Part shown: piece after piece, positions 29,713-64,000 of the stretch | How the letters are laid out: each line of letters starts with the position of its first letter | Numbering within the stretch: the stretch's first letter is position 1 | Origin: an uncultured Bacilli bacterium | GTDB taxonomy: Bacteria; Bacillota_I; Bacilli_A; RF39; UBA660 | Length of the DNA: 64,000 nt | Direction of reading: 5' to 3' | NCBI GenBank assembly: GCA_934096295.1 | Contig: CAKOLL010000004.1 | Coordinates: 48,258 to 112,257 of the forward strand | Translations under genes and position numbers: made by a program | Notes under the pieces: generated by a model | Seen by the model: only the letters and a program-made list of their open reading frames with translations | What the model was told of the DNA's origin: nothing | Database searches by the model: none

Positions 29713-30273
29713 TTACTTATGTAATCTTATAACTTGATATTCAATTATTTTTCCATCACTTACATAACTAACAGATATTCCTTTGCCATTATTGGCATTC
29801 TTTTTATCTTTTGATAGAGTTTTTGCTTCATTCATCAAGTATTTTATATCAGAATCAGTTAAAGTATCATTATTAGATTTTATTAAAGCCTTAACATAGT
29901 TTAAAGCAATAGACTCGTTATCTGAATAATGAATAGTCATTATTTCTGTAATATCTTTATCTTTGTTACCTGTATAATTTTCAGGTTTTACATATAAATA
30001 AACATTATCAAGTAATGCAAACCAATATAAATTATTTTCTTGTGTCATATAATCATAACTTGCTGGATCCCCAACATTATTATCCATTATTTCAGTATTA
30101 AATTTGGCAACACTTAATTCTACACTTTCTTTTTTTACACTACCATATTTTTCGAATGTTTTATTTAAATCTTCTTTTTGTTTATCTAAATCTTTATCTA
30201 AATAGATTTTTACTCCGATTGAACAACCTATCACTAATAAAACCACCAAAACAATAATTATATTTTTTTTCAT
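29713..30273 (-). CDS. lipoprotein of unknown function
   Basis: Signal peptide with a lipobox-like LLVIGCS. Confidence 0.55.
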   Translation of the reverse strand: MKKNIIIVLVVLLVIGCSIGVKIYLDKDLDKQKEDLNKTFEKYGSVKKESVELSVAKFNTEIMDNNVGDPASYDYMTQENNLYWFALLDNVYLYVKPENYTGNKDKDITEIMTIHYSDNESIALNYVKALIKSNNDTLTDSDIKYLMNEAKTLSKDKKNANNGKGISVSYVSDGKIIEYQVIRLHK

Positions 30274-30466
30274 AAGCTTAACCTTCTTTCAAATTAATTA
30301 TATTAAATATGCTACTATTCCAATTGTAACATAGTTTCGACAAAATTTGTCATTTTTTTATATTTTTGTTCTATAAATTAACTAATTATTTTATTTATCG
30401 TTTTAAGTTCGCCCTAGACTACAAAAAAAAGACATGTTATAATTAACATGTAGAAAGGATAAATTT

Positions 30467-58560: not shown

Positions 58561-58905
58561 TTATTCTTCTTTATCAAAGAAACTTTTTACTAAATCTAAA
58601 ATGTCATCAAAGTCTTCTTGACTACACTTTTCTATAAATTCAACATTCCTCTCAACATAATCAACACTTCTTATGTGTTCACATAATACTGCCCCTTTAA
58701 TTTTTTTAGTCTTTGTTAATTCATAATGAGTTGGAAAAGACTTAGTATTTAAGCTTACCGGGCACACTATTGCCATGTTGGTAAATTGATTAAATAATTT
58801 GCTACTTAATACTAAGGCAGGTCTTTTGCCATTTTGCTCATGCCCTTTTATTGGGCTAAAATTGATATATACAATATCTCTTTCTTTAGGTATATATTTT
58901 ACCAT
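58561..58905 (-). CDS. mazF: MazF/PemK-family endoribonuclease toxin
   Basis: IPKERDIVYINFSPIKGHEQNGKRPALVLS...AIVCPVS. Its ATG sits in ATGGTAA, abutting the mazE stop. Confidence 0.85.
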   Translation of the reverse strand: MVKYIPKERDIVYINFSPIKGHEQNGKRPALVLSSKLFNQFTNMAIVCPVSLNTKSFPTHYELTKTKKIKGAVLCEHIRSVDYVERNVEFIEKCSQEDFDDILDLVKSFFDKEE

Positions 58906-59144
58906 ATCTCTTTCCCCTTTGCTTCGTCCCAAGTAAATTTTTCGTTATCTACTTTTGAACCTTCATAATTTTTAATTCTTAGTTTTAATGACGCCTTTTC
59001 CCTTTCTACTTTTGTTATAATAATTTTGTTTTCATCGCGCACGATATTAATTGCATCCCCTGATTTTATATTCAAGGCATCTAAATAAACTTTTGGTATT
59101 CTAATTCCATTAGAATTACCCCATTTTTGTACTCTATATGCCAT
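58899..59144 (-). CDS. mazE: MazE/AbrB-fold antitoxin
   Basis: VQKWGNSNGIRIPKVYLDALNIKSGD is a SpoVT/AbrB swapped-hairpin motif. Confidence 0.8.
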   Translation of the reverse strand: MAYRVQKWGNSNGIRIPKVYLDALNIKSGDAINIVRDENKIIITKVEREKASLKLRIKNYEGSKVDNEKFTWDEAKGKEIW

Positions 59145-59275: not shown

Positions 59276-61240
59276 CTAATTTATGATTATGGGGTCTGTT
59301 TGGGTTCCGGATCCTGAAACATAAGTAACTGAAGACTCGAGATTGAAGGACGGCCGAACCGCACGGTCGCCGTTCACGAAGAGGTCGCCCACGCCACCAC
59401 CGAAGCCCACAAGGAAAGCACCGTTCGAATTGTCCGCATAACGGGAAAATGTCCATTCAAAAACTCCCATGTACATCCAATTATTATTTACAACTTTATG
59501 ATAATCACCCATTATTGTTGTCCATGATTCTGGACTTGCTGCAAATCCATAATCCGATACATACATTAATCCTATTTTGGCTTCATATTCTGTTTCTCCT
59601 GTTGTTGAATATTGGCCTGGAACCGGATTTACTATTTCATTTTGGTATGCTACTGATGGAACTACATTTCTTATTTTTGCATTTGTATTTCCTCCTACTT
59701 TCCATATCGTTGTTGCTATCTTATTTGACCATTCTGTTCCAATATTATTTATAAAGTTTGTATTTAAATTTGTTTTATTTAATAAACTTGTACTCCATGT
59801 ATTTGTAGCTTTGTTTGTAGCCTTATAATTCCAATAATATACTCCGATGTCTGACATTTCTTTTGTTCCTTTATAATAATTTGTTGGCATTCCTGCTTCT
59901 TCGGCATTTTGTGAATAATCTCCATCTGTTCCAAGTAGTGTACTTGATGCATAATCATATTTTATTAATTTTACTTTATCATCTATTACTCCGATAATTC
60001 TATATAAATTATCTGTTGGACATGGACTTGCTGTTGATCCAAAACATACAAAATTTGATAAATCTTCTTGAGCTAAGGTTACCAATGTTTCTTCTCCTGC
60101 TCCCACTTCTTCTATTCCTAACAAGTATTTATTATCTGATGTACTTAAATATGCAAATCCTGTACAAGCGTCCTGTGTTACAGTTCCGCCATCAAAAGGA
60201 TATACATCGTCTCCTGAAGATGTTACGCATTTACTATTTGTACTATCCCAACTTACTGTCTTTTTATTTGTAAATAAAGTACTTAATGAATTATCTCCAT
60301 ACATGACATCACTGCCATTTGTAACTTTATAAACATTTGAACAATCTCCCTTTAACGACATGTTAGTTTGAACGTTAATATTTGTTACATCATTTCCATC
60401 ATATTTACATGAGTATAGATCTGGATGTGCATCTCCTCCTGAATATCTATATGAGTTGTCCCCTGCTCCATTTGTTAATTTGGTGTTATGAATATTTATT
60501 TTTGATGTGTCATAGCCTAAATTGCCATATTTTACGATACAATCTTTTAAGTTTTCTCCATCACTACAATAATCTGCTATTGTTGGATTGTATCCTCCTT
60601 TTTTAACTACAACTTTTGCTCCAAAATTCTTTCCAGCATTTTTTGATTGGTCTGCATTATAGTTTATCATTGTTATTGTAATATTCCATTGTTCTTCTTT
60701 TCTTGGGTTTGCTGTTATTTCCCTATTATCTAATATTGTTACTAATCCTGTTACTCCAGTTATATCATATCCTGATATTGATGCTCCACTTGCATCTGTT
60801 ACTGTTTTATATGTTAAATTTGATAAATTTGTTATGGCATTTCCATCTGCATCTGTTATGCTTAGTATCAATTCTGGTGTGTCTGTATTTATTGAATAAC
60901 CAAATGTATTTGTATATATACTTAGATACAAATAGTAATTTTGTGTTGCTGTATTTGTCTTACTATTTGCAGTCAATAATGCTTTGGCAAATGTTGAACC
61001 TGTTTGGTTACCAGTCCCTTGTGCAAAGTTTTCTTGATCTAACGTTAATGTGATTGGATCTCCGGTTTCAAATGTTAAGGTATCCACAGTATTTGCATTA
61101 ATCCTGATATCTGTTTGTGAACCTTCTCCAGTCTGTGCTGCAAAATATGCATATGTTGCTCCGATGATTAATATTATTAATGCTAACAATGATACTATTG
61201 TTACTATTTTTGTTTTGTTCTTTTCCATATTTACTACCAC
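59276..61240 (-). CDS. secreted/surface protein with a SipW-type signal peptide and a C-terminal lectin-like (DUF1566-like) module
   Basis: The N-terminus LIILIIGATYAYFAAQTG matches the TasA/SipW-class signal. The C-terminus EWTFSRYADNSNGAFLVGF...DRAVRPSFNL resembles the W..S...A..V.....G....VR. ending of DUF1566-type domains. Confidence 0.7.
   Translation of the reverse strand: MVVNMEKNKTKIVTIVSLLALIILIIGATYAYFAAQTGEGSQTDIRINANTVDTLTFETGDPITLTLDQENFAQGTGNQTGSTFAKALLTANSKTNTATQNYYLYLSIYTNTFGYSINTDTPELILSITDADGNAITNLSNLTYKTVTDASGASISGYDITGVTGLVTILDNREITANPRKEEQWNITITMINYNADQSKNAGKNFGAKVVVKKGGYNPTIADYCSDGENLKDCIVKYGNLGYDTSKINIHNTKLTNGAGDNSYRYSGGDAHPDLYSCKYDGNDVTNINVQTNMSLKGDCSNVYKVTNGSDVMYGDNSLSTLFTNKKTVSWDSTNSKCVTSSGDDVYPFDGGTVTQDACTGFAYLSTSDNKYLLGIEEVGAGEETLVTLAQEDLSNFVCFGSTASPCPTDNLYRIIGVIDDKVKLIKYDYASSTLLGTDGDYSQNAEEAGMPTNYYKGTKEMSDIGVYYWNYKATNKATNTWSTSLLNKTNLNTNFINNIGTEWSNKIATTIWKVGGNTNAKIRNVVPSVAYQNEIVNPVPGQYSTTGETEYEAKIGLMYVSDYGFAASPESWTTIMGDYHKVVNNNWMYMGVFEWTFSRYADNSNGAFLVGFGGGVGDLFVNGDRAVRPSFNLESSVTYVSGSGTQTDPIIIN
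59335..59446 (-). other. GC-rich, adenine-poor, NNC-codon-rich segment at the 3' end of the gene (candidate DGR variable region)
   Basis: My counts: 61 G+C per 100 nt in 59341-59440, against 34 per 100 in 59461-59560. Coding-strand A is 12 per 100. 17 of 37 codons are NNC. Confidence 0.45.
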
Positions 61241-61432
61241 CTTTTATTTTATTATGTTTATTTTTTTACAAAGTATTTATCCTACATTATTATTTTACAA
61301 CAATAAATTAATTATGTAAATATCATATTGATATCATTAATATATCAATGAGATTATTCTATTTTTTTCTTATTTTTACATTGTCATTTTATCATGCTTA
61401 AATAGAGAAAAACACGACATAGCAAACCGTGA

Positions 61433-61462
61433 TGTAATAATTAATTATATGTAATAATTAAT
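61433..61462. repeat. 13-nt perfect direct repeat (operator-like) just upstream of the XRE gene
   Basis: TGTAATAATTAAT at 61433-61445 and again at 61450-61462, separated by TATA. Each copy contains the palindrome AATTAATT/ATTAAT. Confidence 0.6.
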
Positions 61463-61475
61463 CTTGGTGAGAGAT

Positions 61476-61664
61476 ATGATTAAAAAATATCGTAAAATGT
61501 ATAATCTTACACAAGAAAAATTGGCTGAGCTTTTAGATATTTCTCCCCGTCAATTACAAAGAATTGAAACTGGAAAAACTGAAACAAGTTTAAAAACATT
61601 AAAGAAATTAATTAAAATTTTAAATATAAGTGATGAAGATATTTTAAAATATATAAAAAAATAA
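61476..61664 (+). CDS. small XRE-family HTH regulator
   Basis: YNLTQEKLAELLDISPRQLQRIETGKTETSLKTLKKL. Confidence 0.7.
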   Translation: MIKKYRKMYNLTQEKLAELLDISPRQLQRIETGKTETSLKTLKKLIKILNISDEDILKYIKK

Positions 61665-61683
61665 GGTTGGATTTTTTCCAATC

Positions 61684-62559
61684 TTATTTCATATTATAAA
61701 TTACTCTAGCTCCATCTGAAGCTGCTGTTACTAATTGATATGTATCTTTTTTAATTATATCTCCGATAGCATATACTCCTTTTATAGATGTTTCTAACTT
61801 TCCATTTACGTTTACATAACCATTTTCATCTAATATTTCTTTTGGTATAAATTCAGTTGCTGGTCTATAACCTATATAAACAAACACTCCCTTTACATTA
61901 AGTGTTTGACCATTATCTAGGGTAATACTTGATAATTTATTTTTTTCTTCATTCATACTTTTTATATTAGCGTTATATATTATTTTTATTTTAGGATTAT
62001 TTTTTATTTCTTCCACTAACATTTCTTCACCACGGAAACCATCACGACGATTAATTAAGTAAATATTATTAACAATGTTAGATAAATATAAAGCTTCTTG
62101 TAAAGCACTATTTCCGGTTCCAACGATTGCTATATCTTCATTTTTATAAAAGAATGCATCACACATAGCACAAGTGGATAAGCCATGACCTAATAAATCT
62201 TTTTCATTATCTAAGCCTAAATACTTTGGTTTTCTTCCCATTGCTAATATAATCTTCTTTGCTTCATAGGTATTATTAGTTGTAATAACTTTTTTTATTT
62301 CGTTAGAAAAATCTACTTCTTTTACCTCTTCTAGGATATATGGAATATCCATACTCTTTACTTGTTTTTCTAAAGAAGCTGCAAAATCAGGACCTGAAAT
62401 ATCTATTAACCCTGGATAATTACTAACTTTGTCTATATTATTTAAAAGTCCTCCGGGCATACCTTTATCAATAATTAATACTTTTTTATTACTTCTTTTA
62501 GCATAAATACCTGCAGTAATACCACTTATACCCATACCTATTATTATAATATCAAACAT
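61684..62559 (-). CDS. trxB: thioredoxin-disulfide reductase-like flavoprotein
   Basis: IIIGMGISGITAGIYA (FAD-binding), redox CAMC motif, second dinucleotide fold VGTGNSALQEA, C-terminal GDI. Confidence 0.8.
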   Translation of the reverse strand: MFDIIIIGMGISGITAGIYAKRSNKKVLIIDKGMPGGLLNNIDKVSNYPGLIDISGPDFAASLEKQVKSMDIPYILEEVKEVDFSNEIKKVITTNNTYEAKKIILAMGRKPKYLGLDNEKDLLGHGLSTCAMCDAFFYKNEDIAIVGTGNSALQEALYLSNIVNNIYLINRRDGFRGEEMLVEEIKNNPKIKIIYNANIKSMNEEKNKLSSITLDNGQTLNVKGVFVYIGYRPATEFIPKEILDENGYVNVNGKLETSIKGVYAIGDIIKKDTYQLVTAASDGARVIYNMK

Positions 62560-62570
62560 ATTAATCCTCC

Positions 62571-63380
62571 TTAAAATCTAACTATTTCATTTTCATCTTG
62601 ATCATAAAGATCTTCATATCTTCCTTTTCTTCCTGTTATCATTATTATTATTAGTCCTAGTAAAATCATAATTATAGAAACTATTTGAGCAACTTTGAAT
62701 CCACCAAGCATTAATGAATCTGTTCTCATTGTTTCAATTACAAAACGACCTAATCCATACCACATTAAATATAATGCAAATGGTTGACCTACCTTCGTAA
62801 ACTTTAATCTTCTTATTATTAGTATTATAAAAAATCCAAGTAGACACCAAATAGATTCATATAAGAATGTTGGTGTGTAATATATTCCATCTATTTTCAT
62901 ACCTTCGATTATGAATGATGGTATGTGTAAACTTTGTAAATGTTCGAGCGTTGTAGCAGCTCCATGGGCTTCACTATTAAAGAAATTTCCCCATCTTCCA
63001 ATAGCTTGTGCTAGTAATAATGCTGGAACAATAAAGTCAAACATTCTTATTGAACTTACTTTATATTTCTTACAGTATATTAATATAACCAAAGCTCCGG
63101 CGATTATACCTCCATGTATTGCTAATCCACCTTCCCATATTTTACAAGCTTCCCAGAAACTATCATATAACTCTAGATTAAATAAAACATAGTAAACTCT
63201 AGCTCCGATGATTCCAAATATAATGGTCCAAAAAAGCATATTGAAAACAAAATCTGTTGAAAATTTATATCTTTTTGCTTCTTTTAGAATCATTGTTATA
63301 CCTATCATGGCTCCGATGATTATTAGAACTGAATACCATTCTAGCTTAAAATTACCAATCGTAAAAATGTATCTATTCAT
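62571..63380 (-). CDS. lgt: prolipoprotein diacylglyceryl transferase
   Basis: WYSVLIIIGAMIG...GARVYYVL...GGLAIHGG...GRWGNFFNSEAHG. Confidence 0.9.
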   Translation of the reverse strand: MNRYIFTIGNFKLEWYSVLIIIGAMIGITMILKEAKRYKFSTDFVFNMLFWTIIFGIIGARVYYVLFNLELYDSFWEACKIWEGGLAIHGGIIAGALVILIYCKKYKVSSIRMFDFIVPALLLAQAIGRWGNFFNSEAHGAATTLEHLQSLHIPSFIIEGMKIDGIYYTPTFLYESIWCLLGFFIILIIRRLKFTKVGQPFALYLMWYGLGRFVIETMRTDSLMLGGFKVAQIVSIIMILLGLIIIMITGRKGRYEDLYDQDENEIVRF

Positions 63381-63524
63381 AATTATTTCACACTCCTTTA
63401 TTTATTATACCAATTTTTTTTATATTATTAAATAATATATACTTTATTGTGCAAATATTATGTAAATAAATACCACGTTTACAATTGTTTACATGTAACT
63501 TTTTGACATGTTTTGTCGAACTGC

Positions 63525-63552
63525 TTGCACTATGAAAAAAAGTTTGTATAAT
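63525..63552 (+). promoter_or_regulatory. promoter of the small-peptide mRNA
   Basis: TTGCAC (63525-63530), 16-nt spacer, TATAAT (63547-63552) with an upstream TG. Confidence 0.5.
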
Positions 63553-63647
63553 AGTTCACTGTTACCCACGAGGTGGTAGTGCCTGCCTTTATTTTGGTCG
63601 GACTTTTCCGGGTTTATATCAGGGGGAGAAAGGGCAAGGTGAAGGAT

Positions 63648-63716
63648 ATGAAGAAAGATTCTATTCTTTTAGTAATAATAATCTTATTAATTGTGGTTAT
63701 TCTAAAATTAATATAG
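63648..63716 (+). CDS. 22-aa hydrophobic peptide, candidate type I toxin
   Basis: MKKDSILLVIIILLIVVILKLI, with AAGGTGAAGGA before the ATG. It sits in a long structured mRNA opposite a convergent small RNA. Confidence 0.45.
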   Translation: MKKDSILLVIIILLIVVILKLI

Positions 63717-63799
63717 AAAAAAGACACTAACCTAACAGGGTATAGTGTCTAACAAAATCAATTTTGCAGGCATTATCCATCTTTGTGGGTAACACTTAC
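63717..63799 (-). ncRNA. candidate antisense (antitoxin) RNA
   Basis: It runs from the consensus promoter at 63806-63834 to the hairpin AGACACTA/TAGTGTCT (63722-63750) plus T run. It is fully complementary to the 3' UTR of the peptide mRNA. Confidence 0.45.
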
Positions 63800-63805
63800 A
63801 TTTTA

Positions 63806-63834
63806 ATTATACCCAATAATTGTAAAATTATCAA
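63806..63834 (-). promoter_or_regulatory. near-consensus promoter for the antisense RNA
   Basis: Minus-strand TTGATA (63834-63829), 17-nt spacer, TATAAT (63811-63806). Confidence 0.6.
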
Positions 63835-63867
63835 TAGGTTTTGTAATTATTCTAAAATAAAGTTTAA

Positions 63868-63900
63868 AGCTAGGAAACAAGTTTCCTAGCTTACTTTTTT
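63868..63900 (+). terminator. intrinsic terminator, likely 3' end of the peptide mRNA
   Basis: AGCTAGGAAAC pairs with GTTTCCTAGCT (11-bp stem), then TTAC and T6. Confidence 0.7.
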
Positions 63901-63970
63901 AACTCCCTACTATGGCAAGGGTATTCCGACTTTTTTGATTCCCACTACGGCCTGGGTCCTCCAACTTTTT
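63901..63970 (+). repeat. two tandem ~35-nt related units, each ending in a T run
   Basis: Unit 1 is TCCCTACTATGGCAAGGGTATTCCGACTTTTTT. Unit 2 is TCCCACTACGGCCTGGGTCCTCCAACTTTTT. Confidence 0.5.
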
Positions 63971-64000
63971 AATACTTTAATAATGTATAAAATTCCTGCG

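Follow-up and report, generated by a model that had tools for sequence, protein, structure and literature searches.

A probable type I toxin-antitoxin-like module with a fold-back mRNA and a 3'-side antisense RNA in uncultured gut Bacilli

We analyzed a stretch of 64,000 nucleotides (nt) from an uncultured Bacilli bacterium (GTDB lineage Bacteria; Bacillota_I; Bacilli_A; RF39; UBA660; assembly GCA_934096295.1, contig CAKOLL010000004.1, positions 48,258 to 112,257 of the forward strand), referred to here as the window, and focused on a small module located between the genes lgt and uvrA at its end. The module combines an open reading frame (ORF) for a 22-amino-acid (aa) hydrophobic peptide, an mRNA whose 5' end is predicted to fold back onto its 3' untranslated region (UTR), and a convergent antisense RNA gene directed at this same 3' segment. 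Our reading, to which we assign a probability of about 0.7, is that it represents a previously undescribed family of chromosomal type I toxin-antitoxin-like modules, with inferred transcription, toxicity, displacement and decay. At the level of sequence, the comparison of homologous loci establishes the anatomy of the module, its conservation, the covariation of the fold-back and the purifying selection acting on the peptide. The first-pass annotation of this DNA had already proposed a type I-like locus, and all elements it described (promoters, ORF, arms and terminators) were found at the positions it gave by reading the sequence, by scans and by folding. Its model is further strengthened by the fact that the parts recur in independent copies, with synonymous drift, compensatory changes, conserved promoters and a terminator acting in one direction only.

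The family comprises 12 full copies in nine sequence lineages, all from uncultured low-GC gut Bacilli (RF39-like): the window and the loci L100, L104, L105, L102/L103, L034 (two copies), L099, L033, L106, L107 and L068. An nhmmer search of 80 lgt-linked loci from species-representative genomes recovered the full copies of L033, L034 (a tandem pair) and L068 as well as a 5' remnant in L028; a pattern scan of metagenomes gave two loci only, L099 and L100; and a protein profile headed by a 47-aa ORF retrieved over-long ORF calls of the toxin peptide, whose contigs provided L102/L103, L104, L105, L106 and L107. The order of the parts is kept in every copy. A 7-3-7 operator-like repeat is followed by a TTGCAA-type -35 box, a spacer of 16-17 nt and a TAGAAT/TATAAT-type -10 box, then by GTTACC 8-9 nt past the -10 box, the Shine-Dalgarno (SD) region, ATG and the hydrophobic ORF, and finally by a hairpin with a minus-strand T-run, an A/C-rich linker, the 3' arm, a CTTACAT block and the -10 and -35 boxes of the minus strand. 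This arrangement was found in at least five genomic contexts: between uvrA and lgt, directly after trxB, beside ABC-transporter genes, near yvcK/whiA and beside an Rpn-like gene. The module is present in 5/80 related loci, and nine ORF calls match it in a protein library of 1.84 billion representative proteins, which is an undercount because most copies of 22-25 codons would never be called as genes. The patchy spread over several contexts, together with the tandem pair and decayed remnants, is typical of type I toxin-antitoxin loci. Such remnants lie in the uvrA-lgt spacers of L026 and L028 (L028:5746-5891), at the same site as in the window; what is left is either the operator repeat with the promoter and 5' arm, or nothing but the terminator hairpin. 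A hairpin like this one serves as the uvrA terminator in relatives that lack the module.

The pairing between the 5' end and the 3' UTR of the mRNA, as proposed by the first-pass annotation, is real and in fact more complete than described there. The inner mismatches were not confirmed: every one of the 26 nt in the 5' arm is paired, the helix contains four G-U pairs, and its 3' side carries two bulges of 1 nt each. When connected by a loop, the arms reach a folding energy of -41.0 kcal/mol (z-score -9.9). For the whole 342-nt mRNA we obtained -112.4 kcal/mol (z-score -8.9, 0/100 shuffles), with the fold-back in both the minimum free energy (MFE) and the centroid structure. The same holds for L102, L105, L068 and L034 (z-scores -6.2 to -7.7), so that the range over the five lineages folded, including the window, is -6.2 to -8.9. 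Within the window, the 26-nt sequence of the 5' arm is unique.

Covariation among homologous loci, suggested earlier as a check of this pairing, argues for it. The alignment, spliced by hand from nine lineages, covered the outer 9 bp and the inner 10 bp of the arms, both free of indels, and 90.1% of its cells pair, compared with 29-51% in slid registers. Changes on both sides occur at 7/19 fold-back pairs, a number that 0/500 shuffles reached. For example, GUUACC:GGUAAC is replaced by GUUAUC:GAUAAC in L104, and GCCUGC:GCAGGC by GCCUAC:GUAGGU in L102. Where the arms depart from Watson-Crick pairing, 22 cells are G-U and 4 are C-A (hand count), although the independent events are few, roughly 9 versus 4. 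This surplus of G-U cells speaks for selection acting on the plus-strand RNA and not on an inverted repeat in the DNA. The middle part of the helix contains indels, yet it pairs in each lineage by hand inspection. If the fold-back is selected at the RNA level, the mRNA must read through the hairpin that follows the ORF; no plus-strand T-run was found after this hairpin in any copy, the T-run being present on the minus strand only.

The peptide MKKDSILLVIIILLIVVILKLI has a charged N-terminus followed by a single hydrophobic helix. Across the family, peptides measure 22-32 aa and share the core LLVIIILLIVVIL in all copies, with those of L068 and P0010 representing variants with a charged C-terminal tail. 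The ORF of the window and that of L104, the most diverged copy, differ in 14 codons, 11 of them synonymous and three conservative (D/E, I/V, K/R); between the window and L105, seven of nine differing codons are synonymous and two are not (both hand counts). Similarly, the two ORFs of the L034 tandem pair are distinguished by a synonymous change of a Leu codon (TTA to CTT). Judging from this substitution pattern, the 22-aa ORF is probably translated and the peptide under purifying selection. Searches of Pfam and NCBIfam with the family peptides at E-values up to 10 returned no toxin family. A longer 47-aa ORF with a GTG start was rejected as the real product, as its N-terminal part upstream of the ATG is not conserved as protein; its MVVPA motif is the conserved 5' arm read as codons and not a protein motif.

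On the plus strand, the toxin promoter claimed by the first-pass annotation is present, and its position and spacing are conserved: homologs carry TTGCAA, TTGCAT, TTGCCA, TTGATT or TTTACA, a spacer of 16-17 nt and TAGAAT, TATAAT or TAAAAT at the same place. Its -35 box is weak and matches the consensus at only 3/6 positions, which explains its absence from the list of the consensus scan; promoter and terminator calls were consensus-based throughout. The predicted mRNA start lies at ~63559-63560. Downstream of the 5' arm, the anti-SD segment CCUUUAUUUUG and the SD region CAAGGUGAAGG form a stem of 11 bp on which the fold-back helix stacks directly. An equivalent helix is found in the MFE and centroid structures of L102, in the MFE structure only of L068 and partially in L105; in L034 the SD pairs instead with a segment downstream. 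In a 3'-truncated mRNA, the SD is still paired by the local anti-SD in the MFE structure, even without the 3' arm, and the fold-back alone would consequently not constitute a hok-type translational lock. Activation by 3' trimming, as in hok, was considered and is unsupported, since the truncated mRNA keeps its SD paired. At the far end, the hairpin of the claimed terminator (63868-63900) is real (63867-63892). In the window, the toxin mRNA would stop there, and on the minus strand the hairpin forms the end of a ToxI-like array downstream of uvrA. Its assignment to the module did not hold: it is shared with L100 and L020 and absent from module copies at other sites. By this comparison it is a feature of the site, shared with the ToxI-like array and uvrA, and not a part of the module.

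For the antisense RNA, the near-consensus promoter noted earlier on the minus strand matches at 11/12 positions and is the best site in the region, and the predicted RNA of ~84 nt indeed covers the 3' segment and ends at a hairpin by the stop codon. Homologs show TTGAWA or TTGTAT, a spacer of 16-17 nt and a TATAAT-like box, followed by ATGTAAG. The RNA folds at -21.3 kcal/mol (z-score -2.6), and a consensus structure was obtained from 11 homologs. Its 5' hairpin is a diverged near copy of the mRNA 5' arm, and the loop of this hairpin is complementary to the loop of a local hairpin of the 3' arm. The terminator stem is kept through compensatory changes in L068, L105 and L102, and its U-run is complementary to the first bases past the toxin stop codon. 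A perfect duplex between the antisense RNA and the 3' arm yields -51.7 kcal/mol versus -41.0 kcal/mol for the intramolecular arms, a gain of ~10.7 kcal/mol, and the antisense RNA offers ~55 further complementary bases beyond this arm duplex, its perfect match taking in the linker and the post-ORF hairpin as well. The linker AACAAAAUCAAUUUU is found in all homologs with varying sequence, always A/C-rich and 8-15 nt long. In the predicted folds of mRNA and antisense RNA alike it is mostly unpaired, which makes it a candidate toehold for the antisense RNA. In L033, L034, L068 and L106 the module lies directly after trxB, with the trxB stop ~10 nt from the antisense -35 box and no terminator between. 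Therefore, trxB transcripts should run through the antisense sequence and end at its terminator, which would give the trxB mRNA an antitoxin-like 3' UTR. The coordinates of all parts are collected in Table 1.

Table 1 Features of the module and its immediate surroundings, in window coordinates.
Feature	Position	Strand	Description
Operator-like repeat	63504..63520	+	TGACATG-TTT-TGTCGAA; directly upstream of toxin -35 box
Toxin mRNA promoter	63525..63552	+	TTGCAC (63525-63530), 16-nt spacer, TATAAT (63547-63552); read from sequence
Fold-back 5' arm	63561..63586	+	Extreme mRNA 5' end; in MFE and centroid; covariation
Anti-SD segment	63586..63596	+	CCUUUAUUUUG; pairs with SD region in MFE of full and 3'-truncated mRNA
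Shine-Dalgarno region	63635..63645	+	CAAGGUGAAGG; ends 2 nt before ATG
ORF, predicted toxin	63648..63716	+	22-aa hydrophobic peptide MKKDSILLVIIILLIVVILKLI; ATG at 63648, stop codon ends at 63716
Antisense intrinsic terminator	63716..63750	-	Hairpin 63750..63722, then UUUUUUC
Predicted antisense (antitoxin) RNA	63716..63799	-	~84 nt; 5' hairpin, linker, terminator hairpin
A/C-rich linker	63751..63765	+	AACAAAAUCAAUUUU; between hairpin and 3' arm; mostly unpaired
Fold-back 3' arm	63766..63793	+	Also target of the 5' half of the antisense RNA
Antisense RNA promoter	63806..63834	-	TTGATA, 17-nt spacer, TATAAT; 11/12, best site in region
Terminator hairpin, bidirectional	63867..63900	.	11-12 bp hairpin 63867-63892, then ACTTTTTT

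From these parts we infer transcription of both RNAs, followed by displacement and decay. The mRNA would run from ~63559 through at least 63793, with the ORF enclosed in a closed fold by pairing of the 5' 26 nt with a 28-nt segment of the 3' UTR. With its 5' terminus paired and its SD covered, such an mRNA is expected to be stable and poorly translated, and the 22-aa peptide would presumably be a membrane-damaging toxin. The antisense RNA could nucleate on the unpaired linker or through a loop-loop contact with the 3' arm, and would then displace the mRNA 5' end from this arm, a perfect 28-bp duplex replacing the bulged 26-bp helix with its G-U pairs. The resulting duplex of ~84 bp would be a substrate of RNase III, and the freed 5' end would be open to 5' decay. 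In this way, the toxin mRNA would be removed as long as the antisense RNA keeps being made. By analogy to par, the SD stem may only slow translation (PMC7472228). A more specific version of this scheme, which we consider possible rather than probable, is that the antitoxin acts as a mimic of the mRNA 5' end: having arisen from an inverted duplication of the promoter-proximal mRNA segment, it would displace the 5' end from its protective closing helix instead of blocking the ribosome site. We know of no type I system for which this control logic, strand displacement by a 5'-end mimic, has been described. Because the antisense RNA is aimed at the very partner of the fold-back, the module would provide a small natural system in which to study RNA strand displacement in vivo. 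Given its rarity (nine ORF calls among 1.84 billion proteins), the family is a curiosity and not a widespread mechanism.

Several points weigh against the toxin-antitoxin interpretation. The toxicity of the peptide is assumed from its size, its hydrophobicity and the behaviour of the locus only, with no known toxin family matched. The sample behind the covariation is small, nine lineages of which several are close, and the alignment omits the indel-rich middle of the helix, which is weaker in L106 and L107. Covariation could also be mimicked if the two arms evolved in concert as a DNA inverted repeat, and only the excess of G-U over C-A opposes this. In addition, the copies adjacent to trxB have no plus-strand terminator after the antisense promoter and hence no predicted mRNA 3' end there. 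Finally, the truncated mRNA hides its SD in the predicted fold, which offers no evident route to translation of the toxin, and the fold-back may serve mRNA stability and not translational control.

Other explanations of the same sequence were also considered. The peptide could be a small non-toxic membrane protein, for example one that serves a transporter or membrane complex as an accessory or regulatory subunit, its synthesis being adjusted by a cis-antisense RNA and the mRNA structure, without any addiction module. Purifying selection would be equally expected of such a useful small protein, two copies (L099 and L102) adjoin ABC-transporter genes, and the L068 peptide has a weak match to the small protein MgtU (19 bits, under the cut-off of 33). 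However, the neighbours differ from copy to copy (uvrA-lgt, trxB, ABC transporter, yvcK/whiA, Rpn-like gene) and reveal no consistent partner; tandem duplication, decay and patchy presence (5/80 loci) better fit the behaviour of a selfish toxin-antitoxin locus; and heavy sequestration of the SD together with a dedicated antisense RNA under a near-consensus promoter is typical of toxin control. We thus regard a non-toxic peptide as unlikely.

The bias towards G-U in the arms (22 versus 4 C-A cells, on the plus strand) is unexpected from a constraint on DNA, and it speaks against the idea that the inverted repeat is a DNA-level feature, such as the inverted ends of a small mobile element or a palindrome bound by a protein, with the RNA fold-back being incidental. 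Bulges and differences in arm length are tolerated so long as pairing holds, no transposase is consistently associated, and plasmids and phages contained no related copy. What makes a DNA-level role attractive is the presence of the module at several unrelated sites, the symmetric layout with the arms just inside two outward-lying -10 boxes, and a 33-nt direct repeat of the promoter/operator segment flanking the module in L105. The latter is explained by tandem duplication, since L034 has two complete tandem copies, and altogether we consider this explanation very unlikely. The slimmest chance is given to the view that the conserved RNA elements belong to the neighbouring genes uvrA, trxB and lgt as their 3' UTR or terminator structures, and that the small ORF is fortuitous. 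The antisense terminator hairpin does resemble the uvrA terminator of the module-less relatives L025, L029 and L024, and with the trxB stop ~10 nt from the antisense -35 box in L033, L034 and L068, trxB transcripts probably end at the same hairpin. Nevertheless, the full set of parts is kept beside unrelated genes, the ORF shows a strong synonymous excess, and both promoters are conserved as parts of the module.

The genomic setting is that of a low-GC genome (25.5% G+C in the window). The spacer hosting the module measures 632 nt and extends from lgt (62571-63380, minus strand) to the 3' end of uvrA, also on the minus strand, whose stop lies ~12 nt past the window end as read from contigs with identical lgt. 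By its lgt, trxB and uvrA genes the window belongs to uncultured gut Bacilli that the records label "Tenericutes" or "Firmicutes CAG:460"; for Lgt the top identity is 92%. In most related species the uvrA-lgt spacer is only 28-325 nt long, and the extra DNA in the window is thus either an insertion or a survivor. Since uvrA, the next gene, converges on the module, there is no downstream gene for it to regulate, and a leader or riboswitch for such a gene was rejected. Likewise, the first-pass annotation had allowed for a known cis-regulatory RNA belonging to a gene beyond the window end; no such RNA was found, with no Rfam match at E-values up to 1 over positions 60000-64000 and only noise for the module itself at E-values up to 10 over the extended region. 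Other elements of the neighbourhood (window 58561-58932 and upstream; L001:14237-14820) include, at a distance of ~5 kb from the module, the type II toxin-antitoxin genes mazE/mazF (PemK) and, beyond uvrA, a gene cluster resembling a type IV pilus or type II secretion system.

The ToxI-like array lies on the minus strand at window positions 63893-63970, between the uvrA stop and the terminator at 63867-63892, and consists of two 36-nt tandem units with the sequence AAAAAGUYGGARKACCCWKGCCRUAGURGGRAKUYA. The close relative L100 has 6.2 units (L100:2546-2767) versus two in the window. The units align full-length and in register with Rfam ToxI, a type III antitoxin, at 24.5, 21.6, 17.9, 14.3 and 13.1 bits (gathering score 50), and a 4-bp stem of the array shows a compensatory change from A-U to U-A. 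A promoter-like site (TTGACA, 17-nt spacer, TACATT) follows directly after the uvrA stop. For a ToxN-type gene beside the array, we found no ORF of such size between the terminator and lgt, and ten ORFs of intermediate size from the window contained no ToxN domain. L019 and L027 have a 1.5-kb insert between uvrA and lgt that was rejected as toxN: in L019, the copy that was read, it contains a 412-aa ORF resembling a peptidase by reading of its sequence. The array may represent a ToxI-like element that is an orphan or a decoy and varies in copy number. One possibility is that the module and the adjoining orphan array form a small island of RNA-based toxin control or anti-defence elements.

The operator-like repeat upstream of the toxin promoter is a 7-3-7 unit with the family consensus TGWCRAA-NTT-TGWCGAA and occurs in every family copy. 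It is probably an operator, the predicted binding site of a regulator; its architecture recalls the CtsR box, a candidate idea only. A second 7-3-7 repeat at 30336-30352 (minus strand) is located upstream of the promoter of a gene for a 186-aa membrane or secreted protein (29713-30273, minus strand), and in L105 the repeat (L105:1-33 and 348-380) also lies in front of a 290-aa Rpn-like gene.

Mobile elements did not yield further copies. Comparison of the locus with plasmids and phages by blastn gave no match. A scan of viral contigs for GTTACCCAC..GTGGGTAAC gave 13 matches, all to an unrelated phage motif (GTTACCCACCGTTAA...), and a second viral scan gave one chance match inside a phage coding region. 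In IMG/VR viral contigs L009-L016, inverted pairs of GTTACCCACCGTTAA and TTAACGGTGGGTAAC bracket segments of ~200 nt, some of which are reverse complements of each other. These pairs are unrelated to the module and probably represent a phage regulatory or recombination motif.

Known type I toxin mRNAs are characterized by SD/anti-SD stems, 5'-3' long-distance pairing and 3'-side antisense RNAs (PMC8594479). The module possesses a small conserved hydrophobic coding ORF (22-32 aa, with synonymous excess), an antisense gene with its own promoter and terminator that is, in silico, complementary to the toxin mRNA, and a structured mRNA with both SD sequestration and 5'-3' long-distance pairing. The first-pass annotation had likened it to hok/sok and to txpA/ratA; the fold-back and the 3'-side layout bear out this resemblance, but by its defining features the module belongs to neither family. 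With hok/sok of plasmid R1 and AapA1/IsoA1 of Helicobacter pylori it shares an mRNA closed by a helix between the extreme 5' end and a 3' segment, with the SD sequestered (PMC8594479; PMC6733600). As in hok and AapA1, each arm can form its own local hairpin, which makes metastable folding plausible. In those systems, however, the antisense RNA is directed against the 5' leader or start region, and translation is switched on by trimming of the 3' end, whereas the antisense RNA of the module targets the 3' fold-back partner. Moreover, the module has no leader ORF comparable to mok and no homology to Hok or AapA, and its host is Gram-positive. For hok/sok membership we found an antisense gene 3' of the ORF, no mok-like leader ORF, no Pfam match and no Rfam match to Sok.

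A convergent 3'-side antisense RNA in a low-GC Gram-positive host is also seen in txpA/RatA and bsrG/SR4 (as well as bsrE/SR5 and yonT/SR6) of Bacillus subtilis (PMC8594479). The module shares with them a long perfect duplex at which RNase III is expected to cut, in line with the role of this enzyme (PMC3531473). In the txpA and bsrG families the antisense RNA overlaps the ORF (PMC8594479), whereas in the module it stops at the stop codon. Unlike in these types, it also falls wholly inside the mRNA, where the 5' end of the transcript already occupies its target. At 22 aa, the peptide is far smaller than the TxpA- or BsrG-type toxins and has no sequence relationship to them. With no ORF overlap and no match in Rfam (E-value up to 1), NCBIfam or Pfam, only the 3'-side layout is held in common with TxpA/RatA and BsrG/SR4.

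The par locus (fst/RNA II) of the Enterococcus faecalis plasmid pAD1, of the Fst/Ldr family, resembles the module in its convergent promoters and in its small hydrophobic toxin with a charged N-terminus, and likewise has a 5' stem-loop over the SD and a toxin RNA stabilised by pairing of its extreme 5' end (PMC7472228). In par, the DNA contains DRa and DRb, direct repeats that are copied into RNA in opposite directions, and the 5' ends of the two RNAs are complementary. In contrast, the repeat of the module is inverted, and the 5' ends of mRNA and antisense RNA are therefore similar and cannot pair. Both par RNAs stop at a shared bidirectional terminator, whereas the post-ORF hairpin of the module terminates the minus strand only. 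Fst/Ldr toxins have a PXXXG motif in the transmembrane helix (PMC7472228); no family peptide has a proline or glycine in its hydrophobic core, and no Fst match was obtained in Pfam or NCBIfam. SprA1/SprA1AS of Staphylococcus aureus likewise combines a small membrane peptide with an antisense RNA on the 3' side, and its structured mRNA hides the SD (PMC8594479). There, the non-overlapping 5' domain of SprA1AS acts on the translation start region (PMC8594479), whereas the 5' domain of the module's antisense RNA is similar to the mRNA 5' end instead of being complementary to it.

Taken together, the best reading of these likenesses is that the family would join a fold-back of the hok/AapA1 style with a 3' antisense RNA of the RatA/SR4 style. 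To our knowledge, drawing on reviews without claim to completeness, the layout of a 3'-side antisense RNA inside the mRNA, aimed at the fold-back partner and paralogous in its 5' half to the mRNA 5' end, has not been described. The module would add a family from uncultured gut Bacilli with reduced genomes (RF39-like), with a predicted toxin among the shortest. Furthermore, it would unite the 5'/3' fold-back of the Gram-negative hok and aapA1 systems with the 3'-side antisense RNA of Gram-positive bacteria, two themes that have so far been separate.

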